DNA from: an uncultured Candidatus Saccharibacteria bacterium
Lineage (GTDB): Bacteria; Patescibacteriota; Minisyncoccia; UBA11713; 2-01-FULL-45-33
NCBI GenBank assembly: GCA_964464405.1
Contig: CAYXFX010000002.1
Location: 44,027-108,026, forward strand
Reading direction: 5' to 3'
Length of the DNA stretch: 64,000 nt
A model generated the notes under the pieces. The model was not told the DNA's origin, did not search any database, and worked only from the letters and a program-made list of their open reading frames with translations. The first letter of the stretch is position 1. Each line of letters opens with the position of its first letter. A program made the position numbers and the translations under genes. Positions 25,854-63,807 of this stretch are shown piece by piece.

Positions 25854-25895
25854 AAGCATTCCAACTTTACGCGATCGCGTAAAGTTGGAATGCTT
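25854..25895. repeat. 42-bp perfect palindrome with GCGATCGC (HIP1-like) core; bidirectional terminator-like
   Basis: AAGCATTCCAACTTTACGCGATCGCGTAAAGTTGGAATGCTT, followed by a T-run. It is intergenic between convergent or adjacent genes. The core CAACTTTACGCGATCGCGTAAAGTTG recurs at 63179-63202 and 63782-63807. Confidence 0.7.
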
Positions 25896-25981
25896 ATTTT
25901 TATTTTTTCTTTTTTCTGAAATTTACCACTTGGTGCGCTATAGCATGTTATGTTGCATTTTAAATATTTAGATCATTTCAT

Positions 25982-27613
25982 TTAATTGCTTTTGTACAGC
26001 ACGTAATGCCCTTCGTTTTTGAGAAGAGTATATTTTGTTTTTAGATCATTTTCAAGATCCGGGAAAAGGGTCGGATAGTCCTCTTGCGTTACAACATAAG
26101 AATACATTTTTCCGTTTTCTGTTAAAGAGTTCCTGCCAAAATATAATACCGGATTAATTTGGAGAAATTGATAAATCTGAAAATCATTAAGCAAATATGC
26201 GACGCTGGGAGCATTAATGATTAGTATTTTAGAATCTTTAGGCAAGGCGTTTGAAATATAATCTGAAATTTTTTGTGCGTCATTTGAATAATATAGCAGT
26301 GAATATCTTTGATTAAATGTGAAAACCAGCTGGAACAGAAATATAAATATAATTGCTGCTTGCGCGGCTTTAATGTAATTAAAACTAGTTATTACTTTAG
26401 GAACTTTAAAAATTAATTTCTTTTTTGAATTTAAATCTACCAGCTTTTTTTCAATATTTTTTAGTATGTAAGTAATAGACGCAGGAAACGTAAGAAAAAG
26501 CAGAAGATGTGCTGGGAAAAAATAACGGTACCAACCTGGTGTTTTTAAATAAAAAATAAGTGTAAAAATCGTAAAAATAAATAAAATTGACTCTGTTTCC
26601 TGAACTTTTTCTTTTTTTATTTTTTTGATAATTAAAAACAAAATAAATGCAGAAAAAAGAACTGTGAAATGGATAGGAGTTGATTCCTTAAAAAACCTCA
26701 CTATATTTTGCAAAATAAGTTCAATTAAATTTTGCGAGGCATATGAGTTTGAGTAATAACCGAAAGCGCTAATAAGCCCCCCTGCTGAATACTCGGAAAG
26801 AATCGTATATAGCCAAAAAATCATAGGGGACAACGCGCCTGCGGCGATTAAAAACAGGCGCTTACATAAATTATTTAAATCTCGCCATCCGTAAATTATT
26901 TCTGCAATAAAAACTGAGGCAGGAACAATCAAAAAAAACGGTTTTGTCGCTGCCGAAAGACCAATGAACAAACCCGCAAAAAACAGGTGCCGATTGAAAA
27001 CAACCCGAGCAGTGTTTTTGCTTTCCTCGTTCCGGCCAGCGCCGGAACTCAGGGTGGAAGCTTCGCAATTTTTCGCTTTGCGAAAAAACCGTGCTTGCTC
27101 GCTTCCAAACCCGCAAAAATGCTCTCGGTTTGTTTTCTTGGGACAGAGCTCAAGCAAAATAAGCGCCGCCAGAAAATAAAATAAACCCGGAATTTCTCCT
27201 AATAAATTTTTTCCGTTGCCATAAAATGGAGTAAAACTTATGATTAGCGCGACACTCATTATCGCCAGCGTTATTCCATACATTTTTTTTACAAGAAAAT
27301 ATGCAGAAATTGTAAATAGAAATAAAAACACAACCATCGGATATCTTGCTGCCAAAATTGTATTTCCGAAAATTTTAACTGAAAGCGCAGAAGGCAAAAG
27401 CGCAGGATAATTTGAAGTTATTAAAAATTGCCTTGTTTCTACGTATTCTCCGGGGGCGGTGCCCAAGCTAAATACTCCGTCGCTCACTAAACTTTTTATT
27501 ATTCCTAAATTAATCCCCTCATCAAACCATGTAGCCGGGCTTGCGGAAAGATGCCACGTGCTAAATACGGCTAAAATTATAAAAAGTAAAATTATAATTA
27601 TTTTATTTTGCAT
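25982..27613 (-). CDS. GT-C superfamily membrane glycosyltransferase (PMT_2/ArnT-like) carrying an in-frame repeat-element insertion
   Basis: N-terminal multi-TM region with the loop ..WFDEGINLGIIKSL... A hydrophilic, GC-rich-encoded segment (KKTNREHFCGFGSEQARFFRKAKNCEASTLSSGAGRNEESKNTARVVF) interrupts the TM core; its DNA (27001-27138) is a copy of the 23539-23671 element. Confidence 0.75.
   Translation of the reverse strand: MQNKIIIILLFIILAVFSTWHLSASPATWFDEGINLGIIKSLVSDGVFSLGTAPGEYVETRQFLITSNYPALLPSALSVKIFGNTILAARYPMVVFLFLFTISAYFLVKKMYGITLAIMSVALIISFTPFYGNGKNLLGEIPGLFYFLAALILLELCPKKTNREHFCGFGSEQARFFRKAKNCEASTLSSGAGRNEESKNTARVVFNRHLFFAGLFIGLSAATKPFFLIVPASVFIAEIIYGWRDLNNLCKRLFLIAAGALSPMIFWLYTILSEYSAGGLISAFGYYSNSYASQNLIELILQNIVRFFKESTPIHFTVLFSAFILFLIIKKIKKEKVQETESILFIFTIFTLIFYLKTPGWYRYFFPAHLLLFLTFPASITYILKNIEKKLVDLNSKKKLIFKVPKVITSFNYIKAAQAAIIFIFLFQLVFTFNQRYSLLYYSNDAQKISDYISNALPKDSKILIINAPSVAYLLNDFQIYQFLQINPVLYFGRNSLTENGKMYSYVVTQEDYPTLFPDLENDLKTKYTLLKNEGHYVLYKSN
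27001..27138. repeat. GC-rich palindromic repeat element copy B, inserted in-frame within a CDS
   Basis: Imperfect terminal inverted repeats (CAACCCGAGCAGTGT and its near reverse complement AATGCTCTCGGTTTG), an internal palindrome TTCGCAA..TTGCGAA, and about 70% identity to copy A. Confidence 0.65.
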
Positions 27614-28925
27614 AAAAATTTTTTAATGCAAACATAAATAAAAATGGCGAAAGAGGCAGCATATACCTGCTCATATCCGCTCCGATCCCAAGTGCACCCA
27701 GAGATACAGCATTTACCGCGAGTATTGATATAAAAAGCGAAGACCAAAAAATAATTTTTCTATCAAAAAATCCAATTAAAGACAAAAAATATGTTACGTA
27801 CCAAAAAAAACCTCCGATTAAAGCAAGCAATGTAATTATATTGCCCAAGTAACTCTCAAAAATCTGCGGAAATTTCGGGCGAATAACGTATTCTGAAAGA
27901 TATTTATAAGGATTTTTAAATAGAGATTTAATGACGAGCGACGAATGAAATTTTATATATTCCAGCGGATTTTCTTTAAATATTTTCCAAAAATGTTCTT
28001 TATAATAAGGAACTAGCGCAAAATCATAATTTGAAATATCTTTTCTGGGATATCCCGAAGGCGCTTCGGGGCGCGGCAAAATAAATCCTTTTTTATCCGC
28101 ATATTGGCTCGTTACATTTCCATAAAGATTATACCAAGACGCGCTTGTTAACTCCCAAGTGTTAAAAACAATTTTATTTCGCAGCATCCAAGGGAATAAG
28201 ATCGCAAAAAAAATAATAATACTAACCGCCCCGACCTTAAGGTCGTGGCTCCAAGGAAAAATTATTTTTTCATAGGTTAACTCAGACGAGGAATTGTTGT
28301 TTATCATTTCTTCTTTCCGCTTACTATAAAACCTCCAAACCATTGCAAGCAGGAATAACGGGAAAAGATAAAATCCTACCGATCTTGTAAGAGTCGCGAG
28401 CCCAAAAATAAATGAAAACAAAAAATATCTTTTTAAAACAAATAAATAAAAACTTAGAATAAACAAGAACGCGTAGAGATAATCAGACATCAAAAGATTG
28501 TTCCAGTAAATCGACATCGGCTCAACGGAAACAACGAGAGCTGAAAAAAGCCCTACTTTTTTTGAATCAAAAATTAAAAAACCCATTTTATAAATTAAAA
28601 TAACAGTAAATCCGGCAATAATGTTTTGAAAAAAAATAACTAAAAAAAGAGGAAGGCGCGCCCACAAAACTCCTGCGATAAGCAAAATATATAACGGCGG
28701 CCTATAAGCGTCGGGCATGTAGGGAGCATCGGTGTTTAAACTAAAAACGCCGTGGTTTATTAAATTTTCAGCACTTCTTAAATAAAAAGAAAATGCATCG
28801 GAATACGCCAAAAATCCCTCGCCCCCGAATTTTATCTGCACAAAAAGCGCGTAAAGAAATCTGATTCCGAATGCCGTCAAAAAAAGAAAAGTTTCAATTT
28901 TGTGTTCTTTTAAAAATCTAGTCAT
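27603..28925 (-). CDS. GT-C superfamily membrane glycosyltransferase (PMT_2/ArnT-like)
   Basis: 440 aa with the motif [17 protein letters not shown] in the first extracytoplasmic loop and about 11 TM segments. Confidence 0.75.
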
Positions 28926-29617
28926 CCCAAAATATTAAAACGTAAAATTGCCCAAACTGCGGCGAGTCCATCTTTCCAGTCGATTTTTTTTCCTTCCGCA
29001 TAAGTGCGGCCGCTATACGAAATTCCAACTTCATAAACTCGTAGTTTTGCGCGGGCAATTCTTGCCGTTATTTCTGGTTCAATCCCAAAACGGTTGCTTT
29101 TTAAATTATCACGTATAGCAAGAAGCGCTTTTCTATTAAAAGCCTTATATCCTGTTTCCATATCAGTTAAGTTTAAATCTGTGAATATATTTGAAAATGT
29201 CGTAAGTAATTTATTCCCGACATAATGCCAAAAAAAGAGAACTCTGTGGGCGGAAGCTCCCATAAAACGCGATCCATATACAACATCTGCTTTGCCATCG
29301 AGCAATGGTTTTAAAAGTAAATTATATTCACTAGGATCATATTCTAAATCCGCGTCTTGAATTATTGCAAAATCGCCCGAGCATTCTTTAAATCCTCTTC
29401 TGATTGCGGCCCCTTTGCCCATATTTTTTTCTTGATAAAAAATTTTATATTTTTGTTCCAAATTTTTTAACACGTCGCGCGTGCCGTCCCGAGATCCGTC
29501 ATCAATAATTATTATTTCTTTTTCCAAATCGCAAGCGTCTGCTCGCAAAATAGCATCCACTATCTTATGAATAGTGGTTTTTTCATTATATGCTGGAATA
29601 ATTACCGAAAGCTTCAT
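28922..29617 (-). CDS. Family 2 glycosyltransferase (polyprenyl-phosphate sugar synthase-like)
   Basis: [11 protein letters not shown]...[12 protein letters not shown]...QDADLEYD; translationally coupled to the upstream GT-C gene (4-nt overlap). Confidence 0.85.
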
Positions 29618-29659
29618 CTCTGGATTATAAAATAAATTTCAGATATAGTACAGATTATA

Positions 29660-31270
29660 ATGGACAAAAAGATCTTGATAGTCCTTGTGCTCGCTTTTGT
29701 TTTGAGGCTCGCGGGAATCGCTTACGGGCTGCCACTCTGGCTGATAGATGACGAGCCGCCTTTTATTTTAGGCGCTCTTAAAATGATGGAATTAAAAACA
29801 TTACTCCCTAACTCCCATTTTGAAGAATTTAAAACCGTACTTTATTACCCGCCATATTTGTCTTATCTCTATTTGCTTCCATTTTCTCTGCTTGTGGGCA
29901 TTAAATATTTATTTTTTTCGGGCTCCACAGAACTTTTTACTTCATATTTACTAGCGGATCTTTCCGGTTTTTTTATTATCGCAAGATTTTTTTCTATATT
30001 CGCTGGAGTGTTTTCTATTTATTTTACATACGCTACCGCGAGAAATTTATTTAGAAACAAAAAGCCAGCAGTTTTTTCCGCAATACTAGCCAGCACAAGT
30101 TTAATTCATATTTCTTTATCCATAGTAAGCAGACATTGGATCTGGGTTTTTTTATTTACTTCTTTAGTATTATTTTTTCTCTCGCAACAAAATTGGAGTT
30201 TTAAAAAGAAATATTTTCTTGCATTTTTATCTGCAGGCATCGGAATAGGATTCGCAGTTATTAACGTCATCCTAACTGGACTCATACTTTCGTGGTATTT
30301 ACTTTATGAAAAAAATTCAACTTTTAAACTTATCAAAGAAAAATATTTTTATTTATTATCGGCTATTTTTATTTTTTTAGCTTCTCTTCCCTACCTTCTT
30401 TATAAAGGAAGCCTGGGATTTACTGCGGATGTCACAACTAAGGTATCAAAAAATATTTCGGGGGCTATTTTTTCTCCTTTTAACTTCGCGTATACAATTT
30501 TTCAATCCGAATTTATACTTATAATATTCGCGGCATTCGGCTTTTATTTTGTTTTTAGAAACAAAAGGAATATTTTTTGGGCTTTTGGCATATATATTTA
30601 TACCGTTAGTACAGTTTTTTACATAATATTCCGTTTTGAACCGCGCTTTTTTATGGCGCTGCTTCCATATTATTTGATTTTAGCAGGATACGGTTTATGT
30701 GAACTGCAAAATAAAATTAAAAATAAATATTTATCTGAAGCTCTGCTGATTTTTTTGATAGTTCCAATGATATTTTCTTTTAGACTATCAGCTCTTGCTT
30801 TTAAAAATGACACCAGGGTTTTGTTAAGAAACTGGGCTCAAAAGAATTTACCTCAAAAGACTAAAATATTAGTTAATGCGCGCCTTACAAGATTTCCGAC
30901 CACCAAAGAAGCCGTCTCTGAACAGCAAAAAATTGATCCCACTTCGGTGAGAAAAATCGACAAAGCAGAGGCAGAGTTAAACTACTCGAATCTGCATTCT
31001 TTGAATATTTTTGACGCAAATAATAAATTATTTTTTGAAAATATAGATAAATATATCAAAGAAAACAAATATGAATATGCCGCGATCAGCCCCGGGTATA
31101 GGCATAGCGAATTTTTTGAGAACGTGCTAAAAAAAGGAATACTGCTAAAAAGTTTTAGCGGAGGAAAATCGGAAATGTCTATTGCGGAAAGCCAATTTTT
31201 TAAAAACCCGTTTGAATTATTTAAGATTAAAGAACTCGGTCCTGAAATTAAATTATATAAAATAAACTAA
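29660..31270 (+). CDS. GT-C superfamily membrane glycosyltransferase (PMT_2/ArnT-like)
   Basis: 536 aa with the loop motif WLIDDEPPFILGAL...YYPPYLSYLYLL and a multi-TM core plus a C-terminal soluble domain. Confidence 0.7.
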   Translation: MDKKILIVLVLAFVLRLAGIAYGLPLWLIDDEPPFILGALKMMELKTLLPNSHFEEFKTVLYYPPYLSYLYLLPFSLLVGIKYLFFSGSTELFTSYLLADLSGFFIIARFFSIFAGVFSIYFTYATARNLFRNKKPAVFSAILASTSLIHISLSIVSRHWIWVFLFTSLVLFFLSQQNWSFKKKYFLAFLSAGIGIGFAVINVILTGLILSWYLLYEKNSTFKLIKEKYFYLLSAIFIFLASLPYLLYKGSLGFTADVTTKVSKNISGAIFSPFNFAYTIFQSEFILIIFAAFGFYFVFRNKRNIFWAFGIYIYTVSTVFYIIFRFEPRFFMALLPYYLILAGYGLCELQNKIKNKYLSEALLIFLIVPMIFSFRLSALAFKNDTRVLLRNWAQKNLPQKTKILVNARLTRFPTTKEAVSEQQKIDPTSVRKIDKAEAELNYSNLHSLNIFDANNKLFFENIDKYIKENKYEYAAISPGYRHSEFFENVLKKGILLKSFSGGKSEMSIAESQFFKNPFELFKIKELGPEIKLYKIN

Positions 31271-32070
31271 TGAAAATAATTGTAGTGATCCCGACGTACA
31301 AAGAAGCGGGAGAGATCGGAAAAGTTATAGATGCTTTATGCGGACCAGTTTTTAAAGCAATTCCCAACCACGAAATGGGCATTTTAGTTGTAGACGGAAA
31401 TTCACCCGATGGAACTGCAGAAATTTTAAGAGAGAAAAGTATTTTCTATCCTAATCTCTACTTTTTGATTGAACCAAAAAAACGCGGAATCGGAGTCGCA
31501 TACATTGAAGGAATAAAATACGCGATAAAAGAGTTGGGGGCTGATGCAATTATAGAATTTGACGGAGATGGACAGCACAACCCAAAAGATGTCGTCAGAT
31601 TGGTAACAGAATTTGACAACGGACATGATTATGTTATCGGTTCTCGATACGTTCCGGGCGGAGCGATTCCCGCAGAGTGGTCGCTTCATAGAAAACTGCT
31701 AAGCCGTTTTGGCAGCTTGACTGCGCGCGCGGTTCTTAATCTACCTACGCGCGACAATACTTCGGGATTTAAACTTTCGCGCGTCGCGGGTTTCGCGGAA
31801 AATTTGCCGCTGGACGAAAATAAAATACTTTCAAAATATTACGCTTATAAAATCCACTTCCTTTATAATATGATTTCGATGGGCGCTAAAACAAAGGAAA
31901 TTCCTATTGTTTTTTTAGAGCGCAAATCCGGCTCATCCAAAAGCACTTTCCGCGATATTTACGATTCATTGCGAGTGGTGTTTGCGCTTAAATTTAGAAG
32001 GAAAAAATATCAAGTTTTTCCAAATAAAAAAACCGGAGAGAATTTATCTCAACCGGCGATAAAATTATAA
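31270..32070 (+). CDS. Family 2 glycosyltransferase, dolichol-phosphate-mannose-synthase (Dpm1)-like
   Basis: KIIVVIPTYKEAGEIGKVI...VVDGNSPDGT...GDGQHNP; its start overlaps the stop of the preceding GT-C gene. Confidence 0.85.
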   Translation: MKIIVVIPTYKEAGEIGKVIDALCGPVFKAIPNHEMGILVVDGNSPDGTAEILREKSIFYPNLYFLIEPKKRGIGVAYIEGIKYAIKELGADAIIEFDGDGQHNPKDVVRLVTEFDNGHDYVIGSRYVPGGAIPAEWSLHRKLLSRFGSLTARAVLNLPTRDNTSGFKLSRVAGFAENLPLDENKILSKYYAYKIHFLYNMISMGAKTKEIPIVFLERKSGSSKSTFRDIYDSLRVVFALKFRRKKYQVFPNKKTGENLSQPAIKL

Positions 32071-32522
32071 ATCGGCCATGGCAGTAAACGCAAAGGAATC
32101 TCGCGAAGAAAATAGAGAAAACGAGATCGCGTAAACCACTGAAACGATTTTCTGTTGAAAAGAGAAACTCCGCAAAAAAAGAAATGTTTATCGTAAGTTG
32201 TTGAAAAGCCAAACCTTTCCAAATCTCTGCAACAGCGTTTGGAATGGCATGGAGCGGCGACCACCAATACATTTTTCCATCCATTTTTATTGGCAAGATT
32301 CACAAAAAACTTAACGAACCTTAACGTAGTGTAGTTCTCCTCGGGCGTCAAATAAAAAATATTGTCTTGGTAAGTTTCCGATTCTGGCAGTGCGCCTTCG
32401 GCAATAACTAAAATGTTATAAATACTTCCCAGATAAGCTGCCCTTTTGATCAGCAACTTGTTTGATTCAAGTTCGGGAGGAAGGCCAAATGCAAAAACTG
32501 CAACAACGTCATATTTTTTCAA
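32049..32522 (-). CDS. Hypothetical protein, tentatively DUF218/YdcF-like
   Basis: 157 aa; weak resemblance to the YdcF VVTS.YHMPRA motif (VLVVAAPCHSKRC). Confidence 0.35.
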   Translation of the reverse strand: MKKYDVVAVFAFGLPPELESNKLLIKRAAYLGSIYNILVIAEGALPESETYQDNIFYLTPEENYTTLRFVKFFVNLANKNGWKNVLVVAAPCHSKRCCRDLERFGFSTTYDKHFFFCGVSLFNRKSFQWFTRSRFLYFLREIPLRLLPWPIYNFIAG

Positions 32523-32630
32523 TCAAATCACCTCCTTTCGGCAAATAAAAACGACGCGAGCAATGCCAAAAACAGAGAATTTTTAAATATTTCCACACTA
32601 TTCTCCTTTACTTTCTCTTAGATTTCTGTG

Positions 32631-38554: not shown

Positions 38555-40855
38555 TTAATCCAGTAGCGTGTCAATTGTGTTTTTTATCATTCTTTCTTTT
38601 GAAAATTCCTGCGCTTTTTGCTTTGCATTTTCGGAGAATTTTTTTGCCCGTTCCGGATTTTTTAAAATCTCTAGAATTCTACTTTTAAGTGCTTCTTTAT
38701 CATTGTAATCAACTAAAAATCCACTTTCCCCGTCTTTAATAAGTTCCGGGTTGCCTCCGATATCGGTAGTTACAACCGGAACTCCTAAAGCCATTGCTTC
38801 TAGAATTTGGTGTGACAAGCCCTCATATGCCGTATTTAATACAAAAACATCCGCGGCTCGCAAATACATAAATAATTTTTCTTTGGGTTCATCATGAAAT
38901 ATAAATAACTTTATTTCCGGAATCTCCTGCTTTAATTCGTTAATTGCTTCTTTTAAAGCTTCAAATCCCTTCCATGGAACATTTCTGCCAGCAGAAACAA
39001 CAACTTTGCCGGAAACTCCGAGTTGTCTTCTTGCTTCGTCTTTCAAAATATTTACGTTCGGAATCTCAAACGAATTGTATACAACGTGAATTTTATTTTC
39101 CGGCACTCCCCACATTAAAACGATTTTTTTTAAATATTCGCTCGGGACTATTACGAAATCTGCTTTCTTTGCCACAAACCGCTCGACGAAACGCCTCGCT
39201 TCAGTGAAAAAATCGTATCTGCTTTTTTGAAACTCTTCCAAGTTTGAAAATTGAAAATTGCCTGCCCGCCAATTGGCAGGCGGGGAAATTGAAAATTTTT
39301 GCATATACTGCTCCCACGCATAGTCGCCAACAATTTTCAGTAAAAACTTTTTCCGTAAAATTTTTGCCGCAAGCATTGCTGGCAAACCTACGCTTACGGG
39401 ATCCTGCGCGAAAACAGCATCCGCGTTCCGCGCGAACCGCAGGGCTCTAAAGAAATAAAGTGTATGTCTTAAAACACGAGGATATTTTCTTATTAATCCG
39501 AAACTTAAAATTTTTACTCCAATATTTTTTTTTGGGAGCTCGTCCAACAAAATTTTGCTATACGTTGCCGGCCCCCCCACATCCGGCGGATATAGCCCAG
39601 TGGCTATAAGAACTCTTTTTTTGATGAATAGTTGACTATTAAAAATTTTTTCATAGTCATCCGCAATTTTATCCCACGAAAACTTTTCTCTTACCATTTT
39701 TTGCCCATTATCAACAATACGCGCCAACAACTCTTTATTGTTTAATAAAGTTTTAATCTTCTCCGCCAAATCTTTTGGGTCATCAATTTTTGCAAACAAC
39801 CCCGTTTCTTTATCCTTAATGATGTCTAAAATTCCGCCAACAGGAGTTCCTATTATAGGGAGGCCGGCTGATAAAGCCTCAACGAAAGCATTGCCCATAC
39901 CTTCCGATCGTGAAGGTCGAACAAAAATATCGGCTTGGGATAGATGCTTTGGAATTTCATCGTACGGCACTTCACCCAAAAATTTAATCTGCAATCCTCC
40001 CTCCGAAAAGAATGTTCCTCCCCCTTTTTCCCCCTCCCTTAAAGTAAGGGAGGGGGTCGGTGGGTGGGTTATCTCATTTGCCAAACTTTCTAAAACACTA
40101 CGCTCCGACCCATCACCAATAACTAGAAGTTGGAAGTTTGAAGTTGGTGGTTGGATTTTTTTCAGCTCCGCCATCGCCCTTATCAAAACATCAATCCCAT
40201 TTTTGGGAACCAATCTTGATACAGTAATTATGACATTTGATTTTTTTTGAAAATTGAAAATTGCCTGCCCGCCAATTGGCAGGCGGGGAAATTGAAAATT
40301 GTTTGTATCCACTCCATTATGAATGACTTTTTCTTCTCCGATATATCCATAATCGTGCGCGACATTTAGTAAGTAGTTAGAAATTGCGGTTACGCAATCT
40401 GCTTGATTTAAAATGAATTTAAACATCCTACCTATAATTCCTCCTCTTCCTTTTTTAATCCTTTCGTCACCGTACCCGTATTGGATATTAAAAATGAACG
40501 GAATTTTTGGATAAAATATTTTGCATATTGCCGCCGCCGCTGCGCCGAATGATAAATCTAGCCCAAAAAATAAATTTTCTTTTTTCTTCATAAGTTTTCT
40601 GATCACAAATAAAGAAAAAATTGGCAACAAATATTTATCTATTACGGTTCCGAAACCCAATCTAATTATCTTTCCTTCTGAATACACCTCCTCACTCGGC
40701 AAGTCCTTCCTCATTCGGGAAGTTACAATAATAAAATCAAATTTATTTTTTAACCGCTTAGAAATTTCTTCAACAGCAATTTCCGCACCTCCAATAAAAG
40801 GCCTGTACGCCGTTGTAAAAACGATAATTTTGGGCTTTGATGCGCTTAAATCCAT
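38555..40855 (-). CDS. Tandem double GT4 (two GT-B domains) glycosyltransferase fusion, carrying several in-frame repeat insertions
   Basis: Domain 1 has ..SRSEGMGNAFVEALSAGLPIIGTPVGGI... Domain 2 has ..TAYEGLSHQILEAMALGVPVVTTDIGG... Total 766 aa. It contains a 54-bp exact repeat twice (39244-39297 and 40247-40300), a C/G-rich palindrome (40004-40070), and a 7-mer tandem (40126-40155). Confidence 0.8.
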   Translation of the reverse strand: MDLSASKPKIIVFTTAYRPFIGGAEIAVEEISKRLKNKFDFIIVTSRMRKDLPSEEVYSEGKIIRLGFGTVIDKYLLPIFSLFVIRKLMKKKENLFFGLDLSFGAAAAAICKIFYPKIPFIFNIQYGYGDERIKKGRGGIIGRMFKFILNQADCVTAISNYLLNVAHDYGYIGEEKVIHNGVDTNNFQFPRLPIGGQAIFNFQKKSNVIITVSRLVPKNGIDVLIRAMAELKKIQPPTSNFQLLVIGDGSERSVLESLANEITHPPTPSLTLREGEKGGGTFFSEGGLQIKFLGEVPYDEIPKHLSQADIFVRPSRSEGMGNAFVEALSAGLPIIGTPVGGILDIIKDKETGLFAKIDDPKDLAEKIKTLLNNKELLARIVDNGQKMVREKFSWDKIADDYEKIFNSQLFIKKRVLIATGLYPPDVGGPATYSKILLDELPKKNIGVKILSFGLIRKYPRVLRHTLYFFRALRFARNADAVFAQDPVSVGLPAMLAAKILRKKFLLKIVGDYAWEQYMQKFSISPPANWRAGNFQFSNLEEFQKSRYDFFTEARRFVERFVAKKADFVIVPSEYLKKIVLMWGVPENKIHVVYNSFEIPNVNILKDEARRQLGVSGKVVVSAGRNVPWKGFEALKEAINELKQEIPEIKLFIFHDEPKEKLFMYLRAADVFVLNTAYEGLSHQILEAMALGVPVVTTDIGGNPELIKDGESGFLVDYNDKEALKSRILEILKNPERAKKFSENAKQKAQEFSKERMIKNTIDTLLD
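39244..39297. repeat. 54-bp exact repeat, copy 1, inside the GT4-fusion CDS
   Basis: TTGAAAATTGAAAATTGCCTGCCCGCCAATTGGCAGGCGGGGAAATTGAAAATT, identical to 40247-40300. It contains the quasi-palindrome CCTGCCCGCCAATTGGCAGGCGGGG flanked by GAAAATT direct repeats. Here it is translated as ..PPANWRAGNFQFSNLEEF.. Confidence 0.9.
40004..40070. repeat. C/G-rich palindromic insert inside the GT4-fusion CDS
   Basis: CCTCCCTCCGAAAAG...CCCCTCCCTTAAAGTAAGGGAGGGGG (perfect palindrome 40031-40055), encoding the low-complexity segment LREGEKGGGTFFSEGG. Confidence 0.6.
40247..40300. repeat. 54-bp exact repeat, copy 2, inside the GT4-fusion CDS
   Basis: Identical to 39244-39297 but read in a different frame (..NFQFPRLPIGGQAIFNFQ..). 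Confidence 0.9.
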
Positions 40856-57452: not shown

Positions 57453-57488
57453 CACGGCTTTAAAACCGTGTTTTTTTATTTTTTAAAT
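57453..57488. terminator. Terminator-like hairpin between ftsA and ftsZ
   Basis: CACGGCTTTAAAACCGTG flanked by T-rich or A-rich runs on both sides. Confidence 0.45.
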
Positions 57489-57506
57489 AACGTTTTGAAA
57501 AGTATT

Positions 57507-58736
57507 CTATGGCAAAAAGGCTTTGAGCCAATATAAGAATGTCCCTGGGCGCGGATGTGAGAGAGAATTTAAAGAAGAAGATTTTTCTAAACCCAAAAGC
57601 CCTACCCCCAAAGAAGCAGACCAGGAAGGATTCCTTACTTTATCTCTGAAACCGCCGAGACTATCCGGATAAGAAATCCGCGCAGGAAGTTTTAAATATT
57701 CGCGCGTAAAATCTGCAATACCTTCAAGATTCGCTCCTCCACCAACGATAACAACGCCTGCGGCAAGAAGTCCTACCCGTTCAACTTTTTTTAGATGCTT
57801 TTCAATAAGCTCAAAAATGTCGTCTAGTCGCAACTCAATAATGTCCGATAGTTTTTTTCTCGAATATTTTCCGTAAATTAAGTCATCCGCGTCGTTTTTT
57901 ACCCTCGCCGTCTTTTTTGCCTGAACTTGCTCCCTTCCGACAATTCCGTGAGTTACTTTTAGTTTTTCCGCTTCTTCCATTGAAATCTGAAATCCGACAG
58001 CAATGTCTTGTGTTATGTGGCGAGAACCTACAGGCAATACTTCAAGAGAATAAGGATATCCTTCTTCAAAAATTATGAGAGAAGTAGTCAAAGAGCCAAT
58101 ATCCAAAAGCATTACACCCACCTCCTTCTCTCTTTTGGAAATCGCGCCCGCTCCTAACGCAAAAGGACTTGCAAATACGTCTTCTAATTCAATCCCAACC
58201 TCGTCAAACGTTTTTATAATATTTTTTAACTGTTGCGAAAGAGTCGTTATAAAAATGGTTTCCGCTTCTAGCTTTCCTCCAGATAGACCTTCTGGATCCG
58301 GAGTTGCAAGATCGTTATCGATTTTAAAAGAAAAAGGGATAGAATGTAGTACTTCCCTATTCTGCACTTTAGCTAAATTGGTCTCGCTCGCATCAATAGC
58401 GCGCTTTATATCGTCCTTCGAAATTTGGTTATCTGCACGGGAAACCGCTACGAGTCCTTTTGATTTTTGGAAACCCAGGCTTGTGCCCCCAATACCCGCA
58501 AAAGCGCGTGTAATTTTCATTCCGATCGCTTTTTCAAGTCCACTAGCAGCATTTTTTAGGGCTTTTGCTACATCGGCAACTTCGATTATGGCGCCCTTTT
58601 TTATCCCTTCCGAAGGAACAGAGCTCGCTCCAAGCACCCGCGTAAGATTGCCTTCACTACGGTCGGAAGACAAAGCTACAGCTTTAATAAATTCGGTTCC
58701 TAAATCTATTGCGATTACAGAATTTTGGCGGGCCAT
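57507..58736 (-). CDS. ftsA: Cell division protein FtsA (actin/ASKHA fold)
   Basis: VIAIDLGTEFIKAV (phosphate 1), ..LLDIGSLTTSL.., and ..IVGGGANLEGI.. (adenosine motif); 409 aa. Confidence 0.85.
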   Translation of the reverse strand: MARQNSVIAIDLGTEFIKAVALSSDRSEGNLTRVLGASSVPSEGIKKGAIIEVADVAKALKNAASGLEKAIGMKITRAFAGIGGTSLGFQKSKGLVAVSRADNQISKDDIKRAIDASETNLAKVQNREVLHSIPFSFKIDNDLATPDPEGLSGGKLEAETIFITTLSQQLKNIIKTFDEVGIELEDVFASPFALGAGAISKREKEVGVMLLDIGSLTTSLIIFEEGYPYSLEVLPVGSRHITQDIAVGFQISMEEAEKLKVTHGIVGREQVQAKKTARVKNDADDLIYGKYSRKKLSDIIELRLDDIFELIEKHLKKVERVGLLAAGVVIVGGGANLEGIADFTREYLKLPARISYPDSLGGFRDKVRNPSWSASLGVGLLGLEKSSSLNSLSHPRPGTFLYWLKAFLP

Positions 58737-58769
58737 TGGATTTGTTAATTAGTTAAATAGTTGAATGGT

Positions 58770-59117
58770 TTAATTAATTTGTTCTAAAATTTTCTTTTCC
58801 ATTTTATCCATACGCTTCGCGTCTTTGTCCTTTATGTGGTCGTAGTGCAAAAGATGCAAAGATCCATGGATAAAAAGATATTTCAAATCTTTCTCGGATA
58901 TATTTATAAATATTTCACCGCTTGACTTACCAAAGGAAAAAGATAACACATTTGCCGCCTTATCCTTTCCGCGATACTTCTTATTTAGTTTTCGCAATAA
59001 TAAAGGTGTGGCAAGTACAAGAGAAAGTTCGAAGTCTTTTTTAAAAATTTTATGGTAAATGTCAAAAAATATTTTCTTTTCTATTTTCTTCCTGCTTAGA
59101 TTGAGGATTTCCAGCAT
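58770..59117 (-). CDS. ybeY: Endoribonuclease YbeY (rRNA maturation factor)
   Basis: The metalloprotease-like motif HGSLHLLHYDH; 115 aa. Confidence 0.8.
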   Translation of the reverse strand: MLEILNLSRKKIEKKIFFDIYHKIFKKDFELSLVLATPLLLRKLNKKYRGKDKAANVLSFSFGKSSGEIFINISEKDLKYLFIHGSLHLLHYDHIKDKDAKRMDKMEKKILEQIN

Positions 59118-59118
59118 C

Positions 59119-59586
59119 TCACTTCCTTATTGTAGCAAGTTCTTGTCTTAATGCTTGTGAAATTCGATCCCCAGACGCCTTTCCTTTCAAAGTAGGCATA
59201 ATTATCTTCATAACATTCCCGAAGTCCTGTTCACTTCCGGCTCCAGCTTCCCTAATTCCTTCTTTAACAATACGCAAAAGGTCCTCATCCGATATCTCTG
59301 GAGGCAAATAAGGGCGCAAAATTTCAAGCTCCGATTCTTCTTTAGCCGCCAAATCTTCTCTTCCCCCTTTTCTAAACTCTTGCGCTGCGTCTTTTCTTTT
59401 TTTTACTTCGGATGATATGACGTCAAGCACTTCTTGGTCTGAAAGTCCTACATCGCGTTTCCTTAAATCTATTTCTTTATTGCCTATGGACGACAAAAGC
59501 AGGCGTAAAACGGAAAGGCGCAACGCCTCTCCAGATTTTAATGCTTGCTTTTGGTCTTCAGTAATTTTGTCTTTTAGGGTTGCCAT
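59119..59586 (-). CDS. GatB/YqeY-domain protein
   Basis: 155 aa with YqeY-family conservation (..ALKSGEALRLSVLRLLLS.. ..NVMKIIMPTLKGKASG..). Confidence 0.75.
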   Translation of the reverse strand: MATLKDKITEDQKQALKSGEALRLSVLRLLLSSIGNKEIDLRKRDVGLSDQEVLDVISSEVKKRKDAAQEFRKGGREDLAAKEESELEILRPYLPPEISDEDLLRIVKEGIREAGAGSEQDFGNVMKIIMPTLKGKASGDRISQALRQELATIRK

Positions 59587-59807
59587 TAGCGGGTTTTGTT
59601 TTTGCCAAGTTTTCTTAAGAGTTCCTGCTCTTTTTGATATTCGATGCGGCGCAAGGCCTCTTTTTTCTTTTGATATTCTGATTGGGAAGAGATGTGATAT
59701 CTATTTCCTCTTGCGCGAGTAAGAAAACTCGACGCTTGCATAACTTTGCTAAAACGCCGAAGCAAACTCCCCGTCGATTCATTTTCTCTTCTTCTTACTT
59801 CAACCAT
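59586..59807 (-). CDS. rpsU: 30S ribosomal protein S21
   Basis: ..RRENESTGSLLRRFSK..; a 73-aa basic protein. Confidence 0.75.
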   Translation of the reverse strand: MVEVRRRENESTGSLLRRFSKVMQASSFLTRARGNRYHISSQSEYQKKKEALRRIEYQKEQELLRKLGKNKTR

Positions 59808-59834
59808 GATTTAAATACTAATTTACTAATTATA

Positions 59835-60179
59835 TTAAGCATTTGTTCTTTTCTCGCCTTTAGACCAGCCGCCCAAAAGATGCAAATGTATGTGATCAAC
59901 AATCTGTCCGCCCTCTCTTCCTATATTGAAAGTTAATTTATAACCTTGAAGGCCTAGCTTTTCAGCCGCTTCTTTTCCTAAAAATATCAAGTGTCCAATT
60001 AAAGCTTCGTCATTGTTTGATATTTCTTTAACAGACGCAATGTGTCTTTTAGAAACGATCAGATAATGCACTGGAGCCGAAGGGCGAATGTCTTTGAATA
60101 TAACAGCTTCGTCGGTTTCTTGCAATACCTCCGCCGGCATTTCCTTATTTATTATTTTACAAAAAATACAATTTTCCAT
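59835..60179 (-). CDS. HIT-family nucleotide hydrolase (Hint-like)
   Basis: CIFCKII... and the histidine triad HIHLHLLGG; 114 aa. Confidence 0.85.
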   Translation of the reverse strand: MENCIFCKIINKEMPAEVLQETDEAVIFKDIRPSAPVHYLIVSKRHIASVKEISNNDEALIGHLIFLGKEAAEKLGLQGYKLTFNIGREGGQIVDHIHLHLLGGWSKGEKRTNA

Positions 60180-60188
60180 TATAGCAAA

Positions 60189-61544
60189 CTATTTTTTTAA
60201 TTTTGCTTTGATTTTTTCAATCAAGCGCGCTTGCATGACGGTTTCCTGAACACCTTCTTCCATATCACGGACAATAACCGAACCTTCCATTGCTTCTTTT
60301 TGTCCGATAAGAAGCGCGAGTTTCGCCCCGATTTTTGCAGCAATATTTAACTGTGCCTTTAAGTTGTCCCTTGAAATAGACTCCGCAACCGGAATTCCTG
60401 CGTTCCTCAAAACTTCAACTAAATTAAAACTTTTTTTCTTCCCAGCCGGCCCAATTTGTATCAAAAACACTTTGGGACTTAACTGTTTTTTTGCCGGAAG
60501 ACCAATTCTTTTCATTTCGTAAATGATTCTTTCAATTCCCATAGCCCAGCCGACGGCAGGAAGCGGTTTCCCTCCTAAAAGGCTCATTAGGTCGTCGTAT
60601 CTCCCTCCTCCACCTAGAGCAATTCTAGCGGGTAATTCTTTCTCCTCTTCTTCCTTTTGTGAGTTCTTATCATTTTGATCCGCAACTTTTTCTTCTTTTT
60701 TTGACTCTTCTTCCAAAAAAATCTCAAAAACAGTCCGTCCATAATAATCAAACCCACGAACCAGATAGTTGTCCATAAAATAAGGTATTTTCCCCTCATC
60801 TAAAAACTCCAAAACATTTTTAAAATGCGTTGAGCACGCTGAACATAAGTGCTCAATCATCTGGGGAGCTTGTCCTTTTAATTCTATGCATCCAGGCACC
60901 TTGCAATCTAGGAGACGCAAAGGGTTTTCTTTTAGCCGTCTTTTACAATCTTTGCAAAGATAATTAAATTTCTTTTTATAATAATTTGTGAGTTCCCTTT
61001 TATAAATTGGCCTGCATTCTTTATCCCCTATACTATTTACGTGTGTGATAACATTCTCAAACCCAAGTTCGCTTAAAATAAGGGTAAAAATTTTAATAGC
61101 GACTGCATCCATTACCGGATCAGCCTCTCCCAAAATTTCTATGCCAAATTGGCGGAATTCGCGGAAACGCCCTTTTTGTGGGGACTCGTATCTAAAAAAA
61201 GAACCCCCATAAGACAGCTTGACGGGTTGCGGCCATGAACCCATGCCGTTTTCGTTGTAAGCACGCATGATTGAAGCAGTTCCTTCCGGACGCAAAGCAA
61301 GCAAGTCCCCGCCCTTCGTACGGAGCGTATACATCTGTTTTTCAATGACATCGCTTGTTTCTCCCAAAGGGCGCAAAAATAGATCCGCGTTCTCTAAATG
61401 AGGAGTTTCTATCGGCATAAAACCGTAAAATTCTGAAATTTCACGCGCGCACTCCAATATTTTCTCCAGATATTTGGCGTCGGCCGGCAAAAGATCGTGC
61501 ATACCTTTTGGCGCCTGCGGTATTTCTTTTTTTGTTTTTTCCAC
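60189..61544 (-). CDS. hisS: Histidyl-tRNA synthetase (class II)
   Basis: PKGMHDLLP (motif 1 region), ..FFRYESPQKGRFREFRQ.. (motif 2), and ..GGGRYDDL.. (motif 3). 451 aa with a K/E-rich insertion. Confidence 0.9.
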   Translation of the reverse strand: MEKTKKEIPQAPKGMHDLLPADAKYLEKILECAREISEFYGFMPIETPHLENADLFLRPLGETSDVIEKQMYTLRTKGGDLLALRPEGTASIMRAYNENGMGSWPQPVKLSYGGSFFRYESPQKGRFREFRQFGIEILGEADPVMDAVAIKIFTLILSELGFENVITHVNSIGDKECRPIYKRELTNYYKKKFNYLCKDCKRRLKENPLRLLDCKVPGCIELKGQAPQMIEHLCSACSTHFKNVLEFLDEGKIPYFMDNYLVRGFDYYGRTVFEIFLEEESKKEEKVADQNDKNSQKEEEEKELPARIALGGGGRYDDLMSLLGGKPLPAVGWAMGIERIIYEMKRIGLPAKKQLSPKVFLIQIGPAGKKKSFNLVEVLRNAGIPVAESISRDNLKAQLNIAAKIGAKLALLIGQKEAMEGSVIVRDMEEGVQETVMQARLIEKIKAKLKK

Positions 61545-61554
61545 AATATTAAAA

Positions 61555-62115
61555 TTAATTAATAATTTTTGCCTCTCCTATCGGCCAAAGACGAATAAAG
61601 GCACGGCCGATAATATTTTTTTTAGGTAAAATCCCCCAAAAACGCGAATCTGAGCTTGCGCCTCTATTATCCCCCAAAACAAAATACTGGCCGTCTCCCA
61701 AACTCCATGTGCCTCCGGAAGTGGTTTCTGTCGGCGGCAAATATGATTCTTCCAAAATAATCTCTTTGCCTTCCTTTGTTGTAATAAAAACTTCGCCAGA
61801 TTTAATATTTACTGTTTCTCCAGGAAGCCCAACAATTCTTTTAATAAAGTACTCCGAGGGCATGATGGGGTATCTAAAAACAATGACTTCCCCCCTTTTG
61901 GGGTCTCTTAAAAAGTAAGAAAGTTCGTCAATTATCAAATATTGTCCGTTTTTAAAATTTGGCTCCATAGAAGAACCTTCTACAATGAATGGCTGGGCAA
62001 CAAAAGTACGAATCGGAAGTACGATCGCTAAAGAAATGATAATGACTTTTATAAATTCCCAAAGACTGTTCTCATTTTTTGTCCTACTCTCCACAATTTC
62101 TTGATTTTCATCCAT
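61555..62115 (-). CDS. lepB: Signal peptidase I
   Basis: N-terminal TM, GSSMEPNF (catalytic Ser box), ..RIVGLPGE.. (Lys box), and GDNRGASSDSRFWG. Confidence 0.85.
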   Translation of the reverse strand: MDENQEIVESRTKNENSLWEFIKVIIISLAIVLPIRTFVAQPFIVEGSSMEPNFKNGQYLIIDELSYFLRDPKRGEVIVFRYPIMPSEYFIKRIVGLPGETVNIKSGEVFITTKEGKEIILEESYLPPTETTSGGTWSLGDGQYFVLGDNRGASSDSRFWGILPKKNIIGRAFIRLWPIGEAKIIN

Positions 62116-62121
62116 AATATT

Positions 62122-62163
62122 TTACCCACCAAAATTTTTAAACAAAAATTTAGGCGGGTGAAT
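62122..62163. repeat. Hairpin copy of the AAAATTTWGGCGGGTRAAT inverted-repeat motif in the lepB/pth divergent region
   Basis: TTACCCACCAAAATTTTT-aaac-AAAAATTTAGGCGGGTGAAT has its two arms adjacent with a 4-nt loop, placed 5 nt upstream of the lepB ATG on the minus strand. Confidence 0.6.
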
Positions 62164-62214
62164 ATATGATACACCATTTTTGAAAAAATATCAAAATGAT
62201 ACTACCATCAAGAG

Positions 62215-62778
62215 ATGATAATAATTGGACTAGGCAACCCAGGAAAAGAATATGAGCAAACGAGGCACAATGCGGGAAGAGAAACCGCGCAATTTTTTGC
62301 CGAAAAAAAAGATTTTCCAGCATTTGAATTTGATAAAAAATCCAATTCATTAATCAGTTCTGCAAAAATCGGCAAAAATAGCGTGCTTATTGCATTGCCT
62401 GAAACATTTATGAATAAATCCGGACTGGGCGCAATTAAGTTAATCAAGCCAAAAAAAGAATTAAAAGATGTGGTTGTAATCCACGACGATCTGGACATTC
62501 CTTTAGGGCGCTTTAAAATTTCTTACGGGAAAAATTCCGGAGGGCATAAAGGCGTGGAATCCATAATGCGAGCGCTTAAAACAAAAAATTTTATCCGCAT
62601 TCGTATCGGCGTCTGCCCGAAAAAGAAACCCCAACAAAAAGAATTACTTAAATTTATTATCGGCAAGTGGAAACCGGCAGAATTGGAAATTTTCAAAAAA
62701 ACAAAAAAACGCGTTTGTGACGCGCTTGAAGTCATGTGCAAAGAAAGTTTAGAACGTGCAATGAGCGAGTTTAATTAG
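62215..62778 (+). CDS. pth: Peptidyl-tRNA hydrolase
   Basis: IIIGLGNPGKEYEQTRHNAGRE; 187 aa. Confidence 0.9.
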   Translation: MIIIGLGNPGKEYEQTRHNAGRETAQFFAEKKDFPAFEFDKKSNSLISSAKIGKNSVLIALPETFMNKSGLGAIKLIKPKKELKDVVVIHDDLDIPLGRFKISYGKNSGGHKGVESIMRALKTKNFIRIRIGVCPKKKPQQKELLKFIIGKWKPAELEIFKKTKKRVCDALEVMCKESLERAMSEFN

Positions 62779-63104
62779 TTTTCTGGCAAAGCTATCGATT
62801 GAAAAAACTCGAATATTTCCGAAGTATACGAGATATTATCTATTGTTTTTATTACACTTCCTTCATTAAAAGCTACAAGCTCGTGTTTTCCATATCCTGA
62901 AGAATATTTTAGTTCATTGACGGCAATACATATTTTGCACACAAAAAATAAAACCCTTCCTGAAAAAACAATAGACATGGCCTCATTTCTAATTTTTTTC
63001 GATAGACACTCCTCACAATCTGACTGACAAAATTCAACAATAACAGGTTTTTTGGCCAATAAAACCTTCTTTTGGAAACTCTTTGCCGTTACAACTTTTG
63101 GCAT
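62775..63104 (-). CDS. Thioredoxin-fold protein with a CEEC (CxxC) motif (tentative)
   Basis: ..KKPVIVEFCQSDCEECLS.. sits at the position of the Trx WCGPC motif; 109 aa. Confidence 0.45.
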   Translation of the reverse strand: MPKVVTAKSFQKKVLLAKKPVIVEFCQSDCEECLSKKIRNEAMSIVFSGRVLFFVCKICIAVNELKYSSGYGKHELVAFNEGSVIKTIDNISYTSEIFEFFQSIALPEN

Positions 63105-63178
63105 TGAACTCTCCTCCTTTTCTAGACATAAAATAGAATTTTATTGCATTTTTGTCAAACGACGACGACAAAAAATCC

Positions 63179-63202
63179 AACTTTACGCGATCGCGTAAAG
63201 TT
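63179..63202. repeat. Palindrome AACTTTACGCGATCGCGTAAAGTT (copy 2 of the HIP1-core element)
   Basis: 24-bp perfect palindrome, intergenic, identical in its core to 25858-25891 and 63782-63807. Confidence 0.8.
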
Positions 63203-63212
63203 AACACATTTA

Positions 63213-63770
63213 TTAGTTGAGACAGAAATGAAGCTTTAGATCTGCGTCTGGTGCTATATTATTTATTTCCGCGTAGCGAATAAAATTTCGAGTTTCGAAT
63301 ACTTCTGAAATAAAATCTACTGCATCCTTACAATCGTAGGGATATACCCAAACACTTTTTTGCACTTCCAAAAATCCGATTTTTTTAAGCTCCCAGCGAA
63401 CAGCGTCTCTTGCGCGTTTCTTTTTCTCCGGGATGTCGTATGTAACCATTCTCCACTTTTTGTCCCACCGCGATGGAATACGAACTTTTATATTTTGGGG
63501 ATCATATTTAAGCGCGTGCTTTTCACCAAGCGATGTCAGAACGATATCCACCGTCCCATCTTTATTTTCAACATAATCAACTAATCTTTTATATTTAAAT
63601 TCGTTAATAATTCTCTTTAAAGTTGCGCGCTCGATTTCATTCCAGGCATGTGGTAAGTTCTTTAGAATTTTTCCAGACTTTTTAGGTGATCCTGAAAAAC
63701 ATAGTGTAACTCCGGCTGCGAGTAATAATACAATTTTTTGTTTTAGTGGACTATAAAAATATTTCGCCAT
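63213..63770 (-). CDS. PaaX-like / Cas2-fold domain protein (tentative)
   Basis: The C-terminal half (..MVTYDIPEKKKRARDAVRWELKKIGFLEVQKSVWVY..) follows the Cas2/PaaX-C pattern (V-x-YDI...R..V...L...G.R.Q.SV-aromatic). N-terminal signal-peptide/TM-like segment. Flanked on both sides by the HIP1-core palindrome. Confidence 0.45.
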   Translation of the reverse strand: MAKYFYSPLKQKIVLLLAAGVTLCFSGSPKKSGKILKNLPHAWNEIERATLKRIINEFKYKRLVDYVENKDGTVDIVLTSLGEKHALKYDPQNIKVRIPSRWDKKWRMVTYDIPEKKKRARDAVRWELKKIGFLEVQKSVWVYPYDCKDAVDFISEVFETRNFIRYAEINNIAPDADLKLHFCLN

Positions 63771-63781
63771 ATACTATATTT

Positions 63782-63807
63782 CAACTTTACGCGATCGCGT
63801 AAAGTTG
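63782..63807. repeat. Palindrome CAACTTTACGCGATCGCGTAAAGTTG (copy 3)
   Basis: 26-bp perfect palindrome located 11 nt upstream of the 63213..63770 start. Confidence 0.8.

Follow-up and report, generated by a model that had tools for sequence, protein, structure and literature searches.

A short palindrome recurs three times in the 64,000-nucleotide (nt) stretch of contig CAYXFX010000002.1 analysed here (the window), and two of its copies bracket a single gene, 63213–63770, which encodes a small protein with a winged helix and a Cas2-like domain. On balance, we favour the view that the three palindromes and this gene make up one self-contained, self-regulating accessory cassette of bacteria of the Candidate Phyla Radiation (CPR), consisting of a protein and its cognate hairpin sites. 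We show that genes of this family are associated with such palindromes, that the palindrome arms covary, that the palindrome overlaps the promoter of the gene and that the cassette is polymorphic for presence or absence among relatives. By analogy, the cassette would resemble in its evolutionary behaviour the pairs formed by repetitive extragenic palindromes (REP) and REP-associated tyrosine transposases (RAYT), or the ends of a small single-strand transposon (insertion sequence, IS). The parts of the cassette and the solo copy of its palindrome, in window positions, are as follows:

63784..63812, minus strand: predicted sigma-70-type promoter, TTGACC-17 nt-TAAAGT, from a promoter scan; it ends 13 nt before the ATG.
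63782..63807, no strand assigned: upstream (promoter-side) copy of the 26-nt palindrome, a putative operator; the exact 26-mer, filling the −35/−10 spacer.
63213..63770, minus strand: cassette gene, encoding the 185-aa mini-PaaX (Pfam PF20803; AlphaFold2 (AF2)/Foldseek).
63168..63203, minus strand: downstream palindrome copy (63178–63203, 1 mismatch) with a T-run, intrinsic-terminator-like in a terminator scan.
25854..25895, no strand assigned: solo 42-nt perfect palindrome, bidirectional-terminator-like; the 26-nt core with 8 further complementary bases per side.

The 26-mer CAACTTTACGCGATCGCGTAAAGTTG was located by pattern search at three sites in the window and had no match in 100 dinucleotide-preserving shuffles. 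It is exact at 25862–25887 and 63782–63807; at 63178–63203 there is one mismatch, at the last base, and the perfect palindrome at that site spans 63179–63202. The original prediction of three occurrences, the last two bracketing gene 63213–63770, thus holds, the gaps being 9 nt from the stop codon to the downstream copy and 11 nt from the start codon to the upstream copy. A 42-bp version followed by a T-run had also been described, and the copy at 25862–25887 is indeed the core of the perfect 42-nt palindrome 25854–25895, with a T-run on the right and also an A-run on the left. This solo copy lies between the convergent genes 25041–25817 (+), for a GT2 glycosyltransferase, and 25982–27613 (−), for a PMT_2-like protein (Pfam). 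No family gene is found near it, the whole window holding one family member only. Rfam and tRNA scans of the window gave no matches.

The cassette protein consists of an N-terminal PaaX/MarR-like winged helix followed by a Cas2-like PaaX_M domain, and we call it mini-PaaX because the C-terminal domain of PaaX is missing. Residues 100–174 match the Pfam family PaaX_M (PF20803, 'central Cas2-like domain') with an E-value of 3e-21, in agreement with the earlier labelling of the gene as Cas2-fold/PaaX-like. The best Foldseek matches of an AF2 model (pLDDT 82) are E. coli PaaX (8a39), Rv0674 (3kfw) and 3l09, and the N-terminal half of the model matches a winged helix-turn-helix (wHTH) of the MarR type. 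Scores against Cas2 models fall just short of their cut-offs (PF09827, 23.4 bits vs 23.8; TIGR01573, 24.0 vs 24.5), with E-values of 1e-5 to 1e-6 for the NCBIfam and PADLOC Cas2 models, and the PaaX equivalog TIGR02277 gives 29.2 bits vs a cut-off of 264.55. Across 23 aligned, diverse homologues, and in 8 distant members, Asp111 of the motif W-R-x-x-x-F-D-I-P-E never varies; Glu114 and Tyr144 are nearly invariant among the 23. Asp111 corresponds to the beta1 Asp in the Cas2-family protein 3exc and to a Ser in E. coli PaaX. Judged by this alignment, mini-PaaX has an Asp at the metal-binding Cas2 position (end of beta1), as expected of a Cas2 fold in the broad sense. No HUH, DDE, Tyr recombinase or Ser recombinase motif was found: the alignment has no conserved His pair, and Pfam gives only PaaX_M/Cas2-like matches. 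Membership in a known anti-phage defence family was considered and rejected, as PADLOC returned only weak matches to Cas2, CARF and winged-helix models and no other system.

The identical protein is found, by exact-sequence look-up, in metagenome-assembled genomes (MAGs) of Candidatus Giovannonibacteria, within the CPR/Patescibacteria. When 1.84 billion representative proteins were searched with a profile, at least 1,170 clusters (50% identity) passed E ≤ 1e-30 and 3,773 passed E ≤ 1e-10. Most of the 150 top-ranking homologues listed are 175–200 aa long, and the recorded organisms are mostly CPR lineages, with a few unclassified records; we have seen the family nowhere else. Databases name its members 'hypothetical', 'PaaX' or 'Cas2'/'CRISPR-associated endonuclease Cas2'. 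Relatives and the core motif were absent from the viral contigs of IMG/VR, and carriage by phage was rejected. In the searchable literature on PaaX/Cas2, Cas2/winged-helix and CPR themes we found no published description of a palindrome-bracketed mini-PaaX. Two further observations concern single loci: one metagenome contig (L106) carries two diverged family paralogues (489–1019 and 3947–4483) within 4 kb, and in another (L084, 261–848) a family copy is split into two open reading frames (ORFs), by a frameshift or a sequencing error.

The tie between gene and palindrome extends across the family. Eighty metagenome loci were picked by protein similarity alone (35–53% identity to the window protein), and the two 200-nt flanks of each gene were searched for common words, a test that presupposes no palindromes and for which other genes of the same loci served as controls. 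An exact word of at least 12 nt was common to both flanks of 47/74 family genes (63.5%) vs 9/182 control genes (4.9%); at 16 nt or more, the counts were 30/74 vs 1/182. The longest of these flank repeats measure 45 nt, and their identity includes positions at which the palindrome is imperfect. Of the pairs whose orientation could be determined, 27 are direct repeats, 9 are inverted and 6 are fully palindromic. Long zero-loop palindromes adjoin many family genes, the same on both sides of a gene, differing between loci and mostly centred on CGATCG. Those centred on CGATCG occur at 0.91/kb near family genes vs 0.013/kb elsewhere (~70-fold); for palindromes with a G+C-containing centre, the density is 1.35/kb up to 250 nt from family genes vs 0.154/kb elsewhere. 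The apex also has clade-specific variants (CTATCG, GCGACCGC, CTATAG, CCATGG and CCTAGG), and apex class follows protein phylogeny: the nearest neighbour is of the same class in 40/54 cases, a value equalled by 0 of 2000 permutations. A member of a distant subfamily, P0045, is flanked as well, by sites centred on CCGATCGG. In a scan of a genome collection, the 18-nt core of the window palindrome, TTTACGCGATCGCGTAAA, was present in ~10 CPR genomes, each with its own further palindromic arms, and a family gene adjoins it in 7 loci; only the apex is truly conserved among sites. Some cassettes have two tandem palindrome copies on each side of the gene, 35–70 nt from start to start (L045, 2043–2113 and 2864–2963; L060, 3717–3807 and 4528–4584), an arrangement that resembles multiple operator or end-binding sites.

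The arms vary from site to site and nevertheless pair. All plain CGATCG within 150 nt of a family gene end were collected with no requirement on the arms (n = 69, with 52 distinct arms). Counted from the axis, position 4 pairs at every one of these sites (100%; A 47, G 16, C 6, T 0), and complementarity at positions 5–20 is 51–80%, vs 21–52% at 56 CGATCG elsewhere in the same loci. A comparison of upstream with downstream copies in 46 loci (644 arm pairs) gave 474 unchanged pairs, 119 single changes and 28 compensated vs 23 uncompensated double changes; a rough per-arm change rate predicts ~6 compensated changes, in a comparison somewhat biased in that both sites were required to look palindromic. 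In L022, for example, the downstream copy differs from the upstream copy by TTTACG to TTTTCG together with CGTAAA to CGAAAA. Pairing is therefore kept between two sites of one protein, which points, as far as the sequences tell, to a constraint on a hairpin or cruciform (in DNA or RNA) or to copying that maintains the palindrome, rather than to read-out of half-sites by a dimer alone.

The two flanking copies appear to play different roles. On the minus strand, the upstream copy fills the spacer between a −35 box, TTGACC (63812–63807), and a −10 box, TAAAGT (63789–63784). The same 26-nt palindrome abuts TTGACC/TTGATC upstream of the orthologous gene (product MAKY(F/Y)YS...) in two other Giovannonibacteria loci, L022 and L026, where the TTGACC/TTGATC-17-TAAAGT promoter is kept. 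The upstream copy is operator-like and not a canonical terminator, because it has no T-run on either strand. The downstream copy passes the terminator scan, with a 12-bp stem, a 4-nt loop and the tail ATTTTTTGTC on the minus strand, and is followed by ATTTTTTG on that strand; the upstream and downstream hairpins each fold at −15.8 kcal/mol. The solo copy passes the scan on the plus strand (19-bp stem, A-run and T-run), and its RNA folds at −31 kcal/mol (z −9.3) on both strands; the A-/T-run flanks and the strong fold suggest a bidirectional terminator. A hairpin of the terminator type with a T-run is thus present at 25854–25895 and 63177–63204 (−), not at 63782–63807. Terminator prediction and RNA folding, both proposed earlier, accordingly support the suggestion of paired operator and terminator hairpins, with the promoter-side copy as the operator. 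Across 42 loci, a −10-like hexamer (at least 5/6 matches) overlaps or follows the upstream copy in 23 (perfect TATAAT in 11) vs the downstream copy in 8 (perfect in 1); T-rich tails come after 9 downstream copies and 3 upstream ones. Members of the GCGACCGC clade have an extended −10, TGcTATAAT, into which the upstream site runs.

The cassettes are variably present. Those of the window, L022 and L026 (type A) encode proteins 62–73% identical and have the same upstream palindrome, and they have no neighbour genes in common. The syntenic region hisS-lepB-pth-[X]-mfd was taken from eight relatives (L109–L116) by way of their Mfd orthologues, and X differs among them:

Window and L001: a 109-aa ORF and a type-A cassette, antiparallel to mfd.
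L109 and L111: a type-B cassette, parallel to mfd.
L114: a 5'-truncated, frameshifted remnant of a type-B gene, with no palindromes.
L110, L113 and L115: nothing, a gap of 37–83 nt with no palindrome.
L112: a deletion.
L116: a different upstream context.

Type B is like type A in the Cas2-like domain only; its imperfect palindromes, 34–37 nt long, are centred on ACCGATCGGT and have a TTGACC −35 inside. In one MAG, MFHO01, the pth-mfd site is empty (L115), but a different contig (L022) carries a type-A cassette that has the 26-nt palindrome of the window; one cassette type thus occupies different loci in related genomes. L111 and L112 run colinear until the upstream palindrome, whose first base marks the left edge of the indel, and regain colinearity ~1 kb later. 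The extra DNA of L109 ends, on its right, no more than 4 nt from the downstream palindrome, and the window has 1,186 nt where L112 has 289 nt. More widely among the metagenome loci, proteins 78–86% identical occur in at least four unrelated contexts, and an equally diverged group is syntenic. The idea of a cassette bounded by identical palindromes and variably present among related genomes is therefore supported, both as a trait of the family and at the pth-mfd site. The remnant in L114 (3060–3480), an uncalled type-B gene between pth and mfd that has lost both palindromes, shows that mini-PaaX cassettes decay. Two other features of the region were noted. Between pth and the window cassette, outside the palindromes, lies an ORF that is absent at this site in all eight relatives:

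62775..63104, minus strand: 109-aa ORF adjoining the cassette; no Pfam family.

It may be a co-inserted passenger or a separate insertion. In L116, an rve-family integrase gene of an IS element (4795–5838) sits between mfd and an inositol-phosphatase gene, and the neighbourhood of mfd is therefore more generally variable.

Solo palindromes are few, one in 64 kb here and two or three exact-core copies in each of two other MAGs. In the latter, one of Azambacteria and one of Saccharibacteria, the further copies have an identical 32–38-nt sequence and lie beside housekeeping genes with no relation to the family, namely mreB, gatB and a class-V aminotransferase gene; other CGATCG-centred palindromes, with different arms, are found in the same loci beside frr, rpsI and msrAB. 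Convergent, tandem and divergent settings are all represented, and no regular pattern emerges. In the window and in L020, the symmetry of the solo copy extends into copy-specific outer arms with A and T tracts, and for this reason the solo copy resembles a terminator stem tipped by the element. Solo copies could be footprints (like the solo long terminal repeats left by recombination between direct repeats), satellite copies or additional operators.

These observations can be accommodated in the following model. The cassette consists of a palindrome with a predicted promoter, the mini-PaaX gene and a second palindrome. Mini-PaaX is presumably a dimer, as are PaaX and Cas2. Its binding to the upstream site, in the −35/−10 spacer, would repress transcription of its own gene, and the downstream site would, in this genome, also serve as the intrinsic terminator of the gene. 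Over evolutionary time, the cassette would be inserted, deleted, replaced or degraded as a block, and would leave behind or seed solo palindromes such as 25854–25895, which here would act as a bidirectional terminator. Relocation might be brought about by the Cas2-like domain, by host recombination between the repeats or by horizontal exchange. In the alignment, the C-terminal Cas2-like domain is conserved and the N-terminal winged helix is very variable; the former may parallel the conserved apex of the sites, and the latter their variable arms.

Several points weigh against this model. We infer from linkage alone that mini-PaaX binds its own flanking palindromes. The proteins adjoining the identical 18-nt core in different CPR lineages are only 20–35% identical, with no obvious common recognition helix among them; recognition of the arms by the winged helix is for that reason conjectural. 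A reading of TTTACGCGATCGCGTAAA as an operator conserved across phyla was rejected on the same protein identities and because most homologues have other arms, and its sharing between lineages may in part be due to chance, given thousands of diverse sites. Copy number is low, with one gene and three sites in 64 kb. The deletion in L112 runs ~390 nt past the downstream palindrome and is not a clean excision. One family member of identical sequence keeps its context on each of the 17 contigs where it occurs; nothing, such as identical cassettes in different contexts, speaks for recent transposition; and none of the empty syntenic sites holds a solo palindrome. The very wide spread of the family, lastly, is equally compatible with a host regulator. 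Two specific routes of movement were also considered and set aside. Integration of a circle into a pre-existing solo palindrome is unsupported, the empty sites having no palindrome and the outer flanks of the window cassette being non-complementary. Inversion between the flanking palindromes was looked for in L066 and L072, where the cassette is inverted relative to a common neighbour; the intervening DNA differs, and this is no clean case.

The main rival, which we regard as possible but less probable than the cassette, sees in mini-PaaX an ordinary repressor of the host that controls its own gene and a small regulon: the upstream palindrome would be its operator, the other copies would be extra operators or operator-derived terminators, nothing would be mobile, and the differing contexts would be due to rearrangement of the genome and loss of genes. 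The relatives of PaaX are palindrome-binding repressors, and a host repressor would fit the structural similarity to them, the overlap of operator and promoter in three Giovannonibacteria and the −10 boxes that abut the upstream copy family-wide, as well as the stable context over 17 contigs, the breadth of the family in CPR and the two solo copies of the Saccharibacteria MAG that lie in divergent promoter regions. Other solo copies, however, lie between convergent genes or 3' of genes, and the neighbour genes are not conserved, which leaves no local target operon. Moreover, copies within a genome are identical over 26–45 nt, non-palindromic positions included, far beyond what a wHTH dimer reads, and the arm changes between two sites served by the same protein are compensated. 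Nor would a host repressor be expected to be present, absent, a pseudogene or replaced in opposite orientation by another subfamily at one syntenic site, or to keep invariant a Cas2-position Asp that E. coli PaaX has not kept.

A bolder proposal, which we consider unlikely though less so than full autonomy, is that mini-PaaX is the catalytic component of an unrecognised minimal mobile or repeat-propagating element, a Cas2-fold nuclease tethered by its wHTH and acting on the CGATCG apex of a hairpin or cruciform. In its strongest form, which we doubt further, the whole would be a new minimal autonomous mobile element: the Cas2-like nuclease would cut the CGATCG apex of hairpin or cruciform ends and move a unit of ~650 bp, with solo palindromes, in the manner of REPINs, as its footprints or non-autonomous copies. 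Such an element would account for the position of the gene between cognate hairpin sites, which are mostly direct repeats, as they are in single-strand transposons; for end copies identical in many loci and diverged in others, like an age series; for indel edges at palindrome edges (exact in L111, within 4 nt in L109); and for the constancy of Asp111, Glu114 and Tyr144, the decay of the cassette in L114 and the genome-specific arms of the solo copies. Against it stand the want of any transposase or recombinase motif (HUH, DDE, Tyr or Ser recombinase), the weak and debated nuclease activity of Cas2 itself, the absence of multi-copy identical cassettes, of a visible target-site duplication and of recent movement, and the absence of the family from viral contigs. 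Measured as an IS or transposon, then, the cassette shows presence and absence with edges at the palindromes, with no identical copies in different contexts and no recognisable transposase.

That the palindromes are terminators or insulators acting in RNA, or a HIP1-like (highly iterated palindrome) methylation-linked motif, with no functional tie to the gene, is very improbable and already largely refuted: the downstream and solo copies fold strongly and have a hairpin and T-run, and the palindrome centre contains GATC and CGATCG, known methyltransferase sites in cyanobacteria (PMC4390886), but the upstream copy lies inside a promoter and has no T-run, the ~70-fold enrichment is specifically beside family genes, and neither the octamer nor the hexamer is over-represented. 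The window has ~10 convergent gene junctions (9 and the palindrome-bearing one), of which that one alone has the palindrome, so that a generic terminator following most convergent gene pairs, named in the original prediction as the finding that would tell against it, is not what is seen here.

Some other repeats of the window, and the assemblies around it, deserve mention. A second palindrome, CCTGCCTGCCGGCAGGCAGG, recurs in unrelated CPR metagenome loci (L049, 50–71; L068, 5221–5240; L075, 769–788), and a terminator-like hairpin related to it, CCTGCCTTATCGGCAGG, is found in the window at 63948–63964, near the 5' region of mfd. A 58-nt repeat with a G+C-rich palindrome, TTTGAAAATTGAAAATTGCCTGCCCGCCAATTGGCAGGCGGGGAAATTGAAAATT, occurs at 39243–39300 and 40246–40303 (98% identical, 1,003 nt apart); both copies are inside a single uninterrupted ORF of 766 aa, 38555–40855 (−), with two sets of GT4 glycosyltransferase domains, and they may represent an in-frame palindromic insert (cf. 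the palindromic elements, RPEs, of Rickettsia) or a fused tandem gene pair. Four families of direct repeats, D1–D4 (60–79% identity; spacing ~1.7 kb and 7.5 kb), at 3783–7224 and 12960–14783, fall in three ORFs of ~570–610 aa on the minus strand (3783–5543, 5500–7224 and 12960–14783), which suggests paralogous genes, probably not non-coding repeats. The source population has also been assembled twice, independently, from short reads (Logan contigs L002 and L003; runs SRR12113383 and SRR12113384), and both assemblies break ~65 nt upstream of the upstream palindrome, which may reflect assembly trouble near a repeated palindrome.

CPR bacteria make up a large share of bacterial diversity, and their regulators and mobile DNA are almost uncharted. 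The mini-PaaX family is now defined together with a testable partner in cis, a hairpin palindrome of conserved apex that flanks the gene on either side, and the hypothesis follows that the protein binds or cleaves hairpins with a CGATCG apex; this corrects its misannotation as CRISPR Cas2, and the cassette marks variable regions of CPR genomes. If the Cas2-like domain were active on the repeats, Cas2-fold proteins would be tied to palindromic repeats independently of CRISPR. Should mini-PaaX prove to be the catalytic component of a mobile element, it would give the Cas2 family its first functional link to palindromic repeats outside CRISPR, and would bear on the origin of the CRISPR adaptation module and of its repeats.

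How does the cassette compare with known systems? With HIP1, as which the core had originally been labelled, it has in common the central octamer of the window palindrome, GCGATCGC. In cyanobacteria, HIP1 is over-represented 15- to 300-fold, about one per gene (PMC5861425). In the window, by contrast, the octamer is not iterated and lies outside coding DNA: it has 3 copies in 64 kb (Markov expectation 2.4), each within one of the three palindrome sites, and CGATCG occurs 10 times vs ~8 expected. The host is a CPR bacterium (a Candidatus Giovannonibacteria MAG), not a cyanobacterium, and the wider family keeps CGATCG or its variants with A commoner than G at position 4 (47 vs 16). The HIP1 label is inapplicable, because the octamer occurs only inside one long repeated palindrome and CGATCG is near its expected count.

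The PaaX repressors (8a39) are the best structural and profile matches, with a winged helix followed by the Cas2-like PaaX_M domain and a palindromic DNA site that overlaps the promoter. Mini-PaaX, however, lacks their ligand-sensing C-terminal domain and has the Cas2-position Asp that PaaX lost; there is no paa operon, and the gene is bracketed by its own sites and behaves as part of an accessory cassette. With PaaX_M and an N-terminal wHTH only, and far below the TIGR02277 cut-off, it was not assigned to PaaX proper. With the Cas2/VapD nucleases it shares the ferredoxin-like Cas2 domain, the beta1 Asp, the QxSV(F/W) strand and a gene tied to palindromic repeats, but it scores just below the Cas2 gathering thresholds and its Cas2 domain is fused to a DNA-binding domain. 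Unlike in CRISPR, two repeats bracket the gene itself and not a spacer array. No cas1 was present in the annotated neighbourhoods (L001 and L109–L117; the window neighbours are mfd, pth and the 109-aa ORF), no CRISPR-like array was seen in the 80 scanned loci, and identity with CRISPR Cas2 was rejected on these grounds together with the scores.

Among mobile units, an integron gene cassette has no promoter of its own, carries one attC, 3' of its ORF, and belongs to an array beside intI/attI. The present cassette has two sites per gene and its own promoter, occurs as isolated single units and has no integrase nearby, and was not counted as one. With IS200/IS605 elements it shares its very small size (~650 bp), a single gene for a small protein and directly oriented subterminal hairpins at each end; unlike them, it encodes no Y1 HUH transposase, is not found in several identical copies and has no demonstrated target motif. 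Finally, the cassette was not classed as a REP/RAYT system, its protein being wHTH and Cas2-like rather than an HUH/Y1 (IS200-like) transposase and its sites apparently few per genome rather than the tens to hundreds of REP/RAYT; its flanks, moreover, are mostly direct and not inverted, and its palindromes are zero-loop with a conserved CGATCG apex. The likeness to REP/RAYT (REPIN) pairs lies elsewhere: in both, a short hairpin palindrome flanks a single-copy gene and is also found alone between genes, its sequence is uniform inside one genome but not from lineage to lineage, and gene and repeat type are inherited together.

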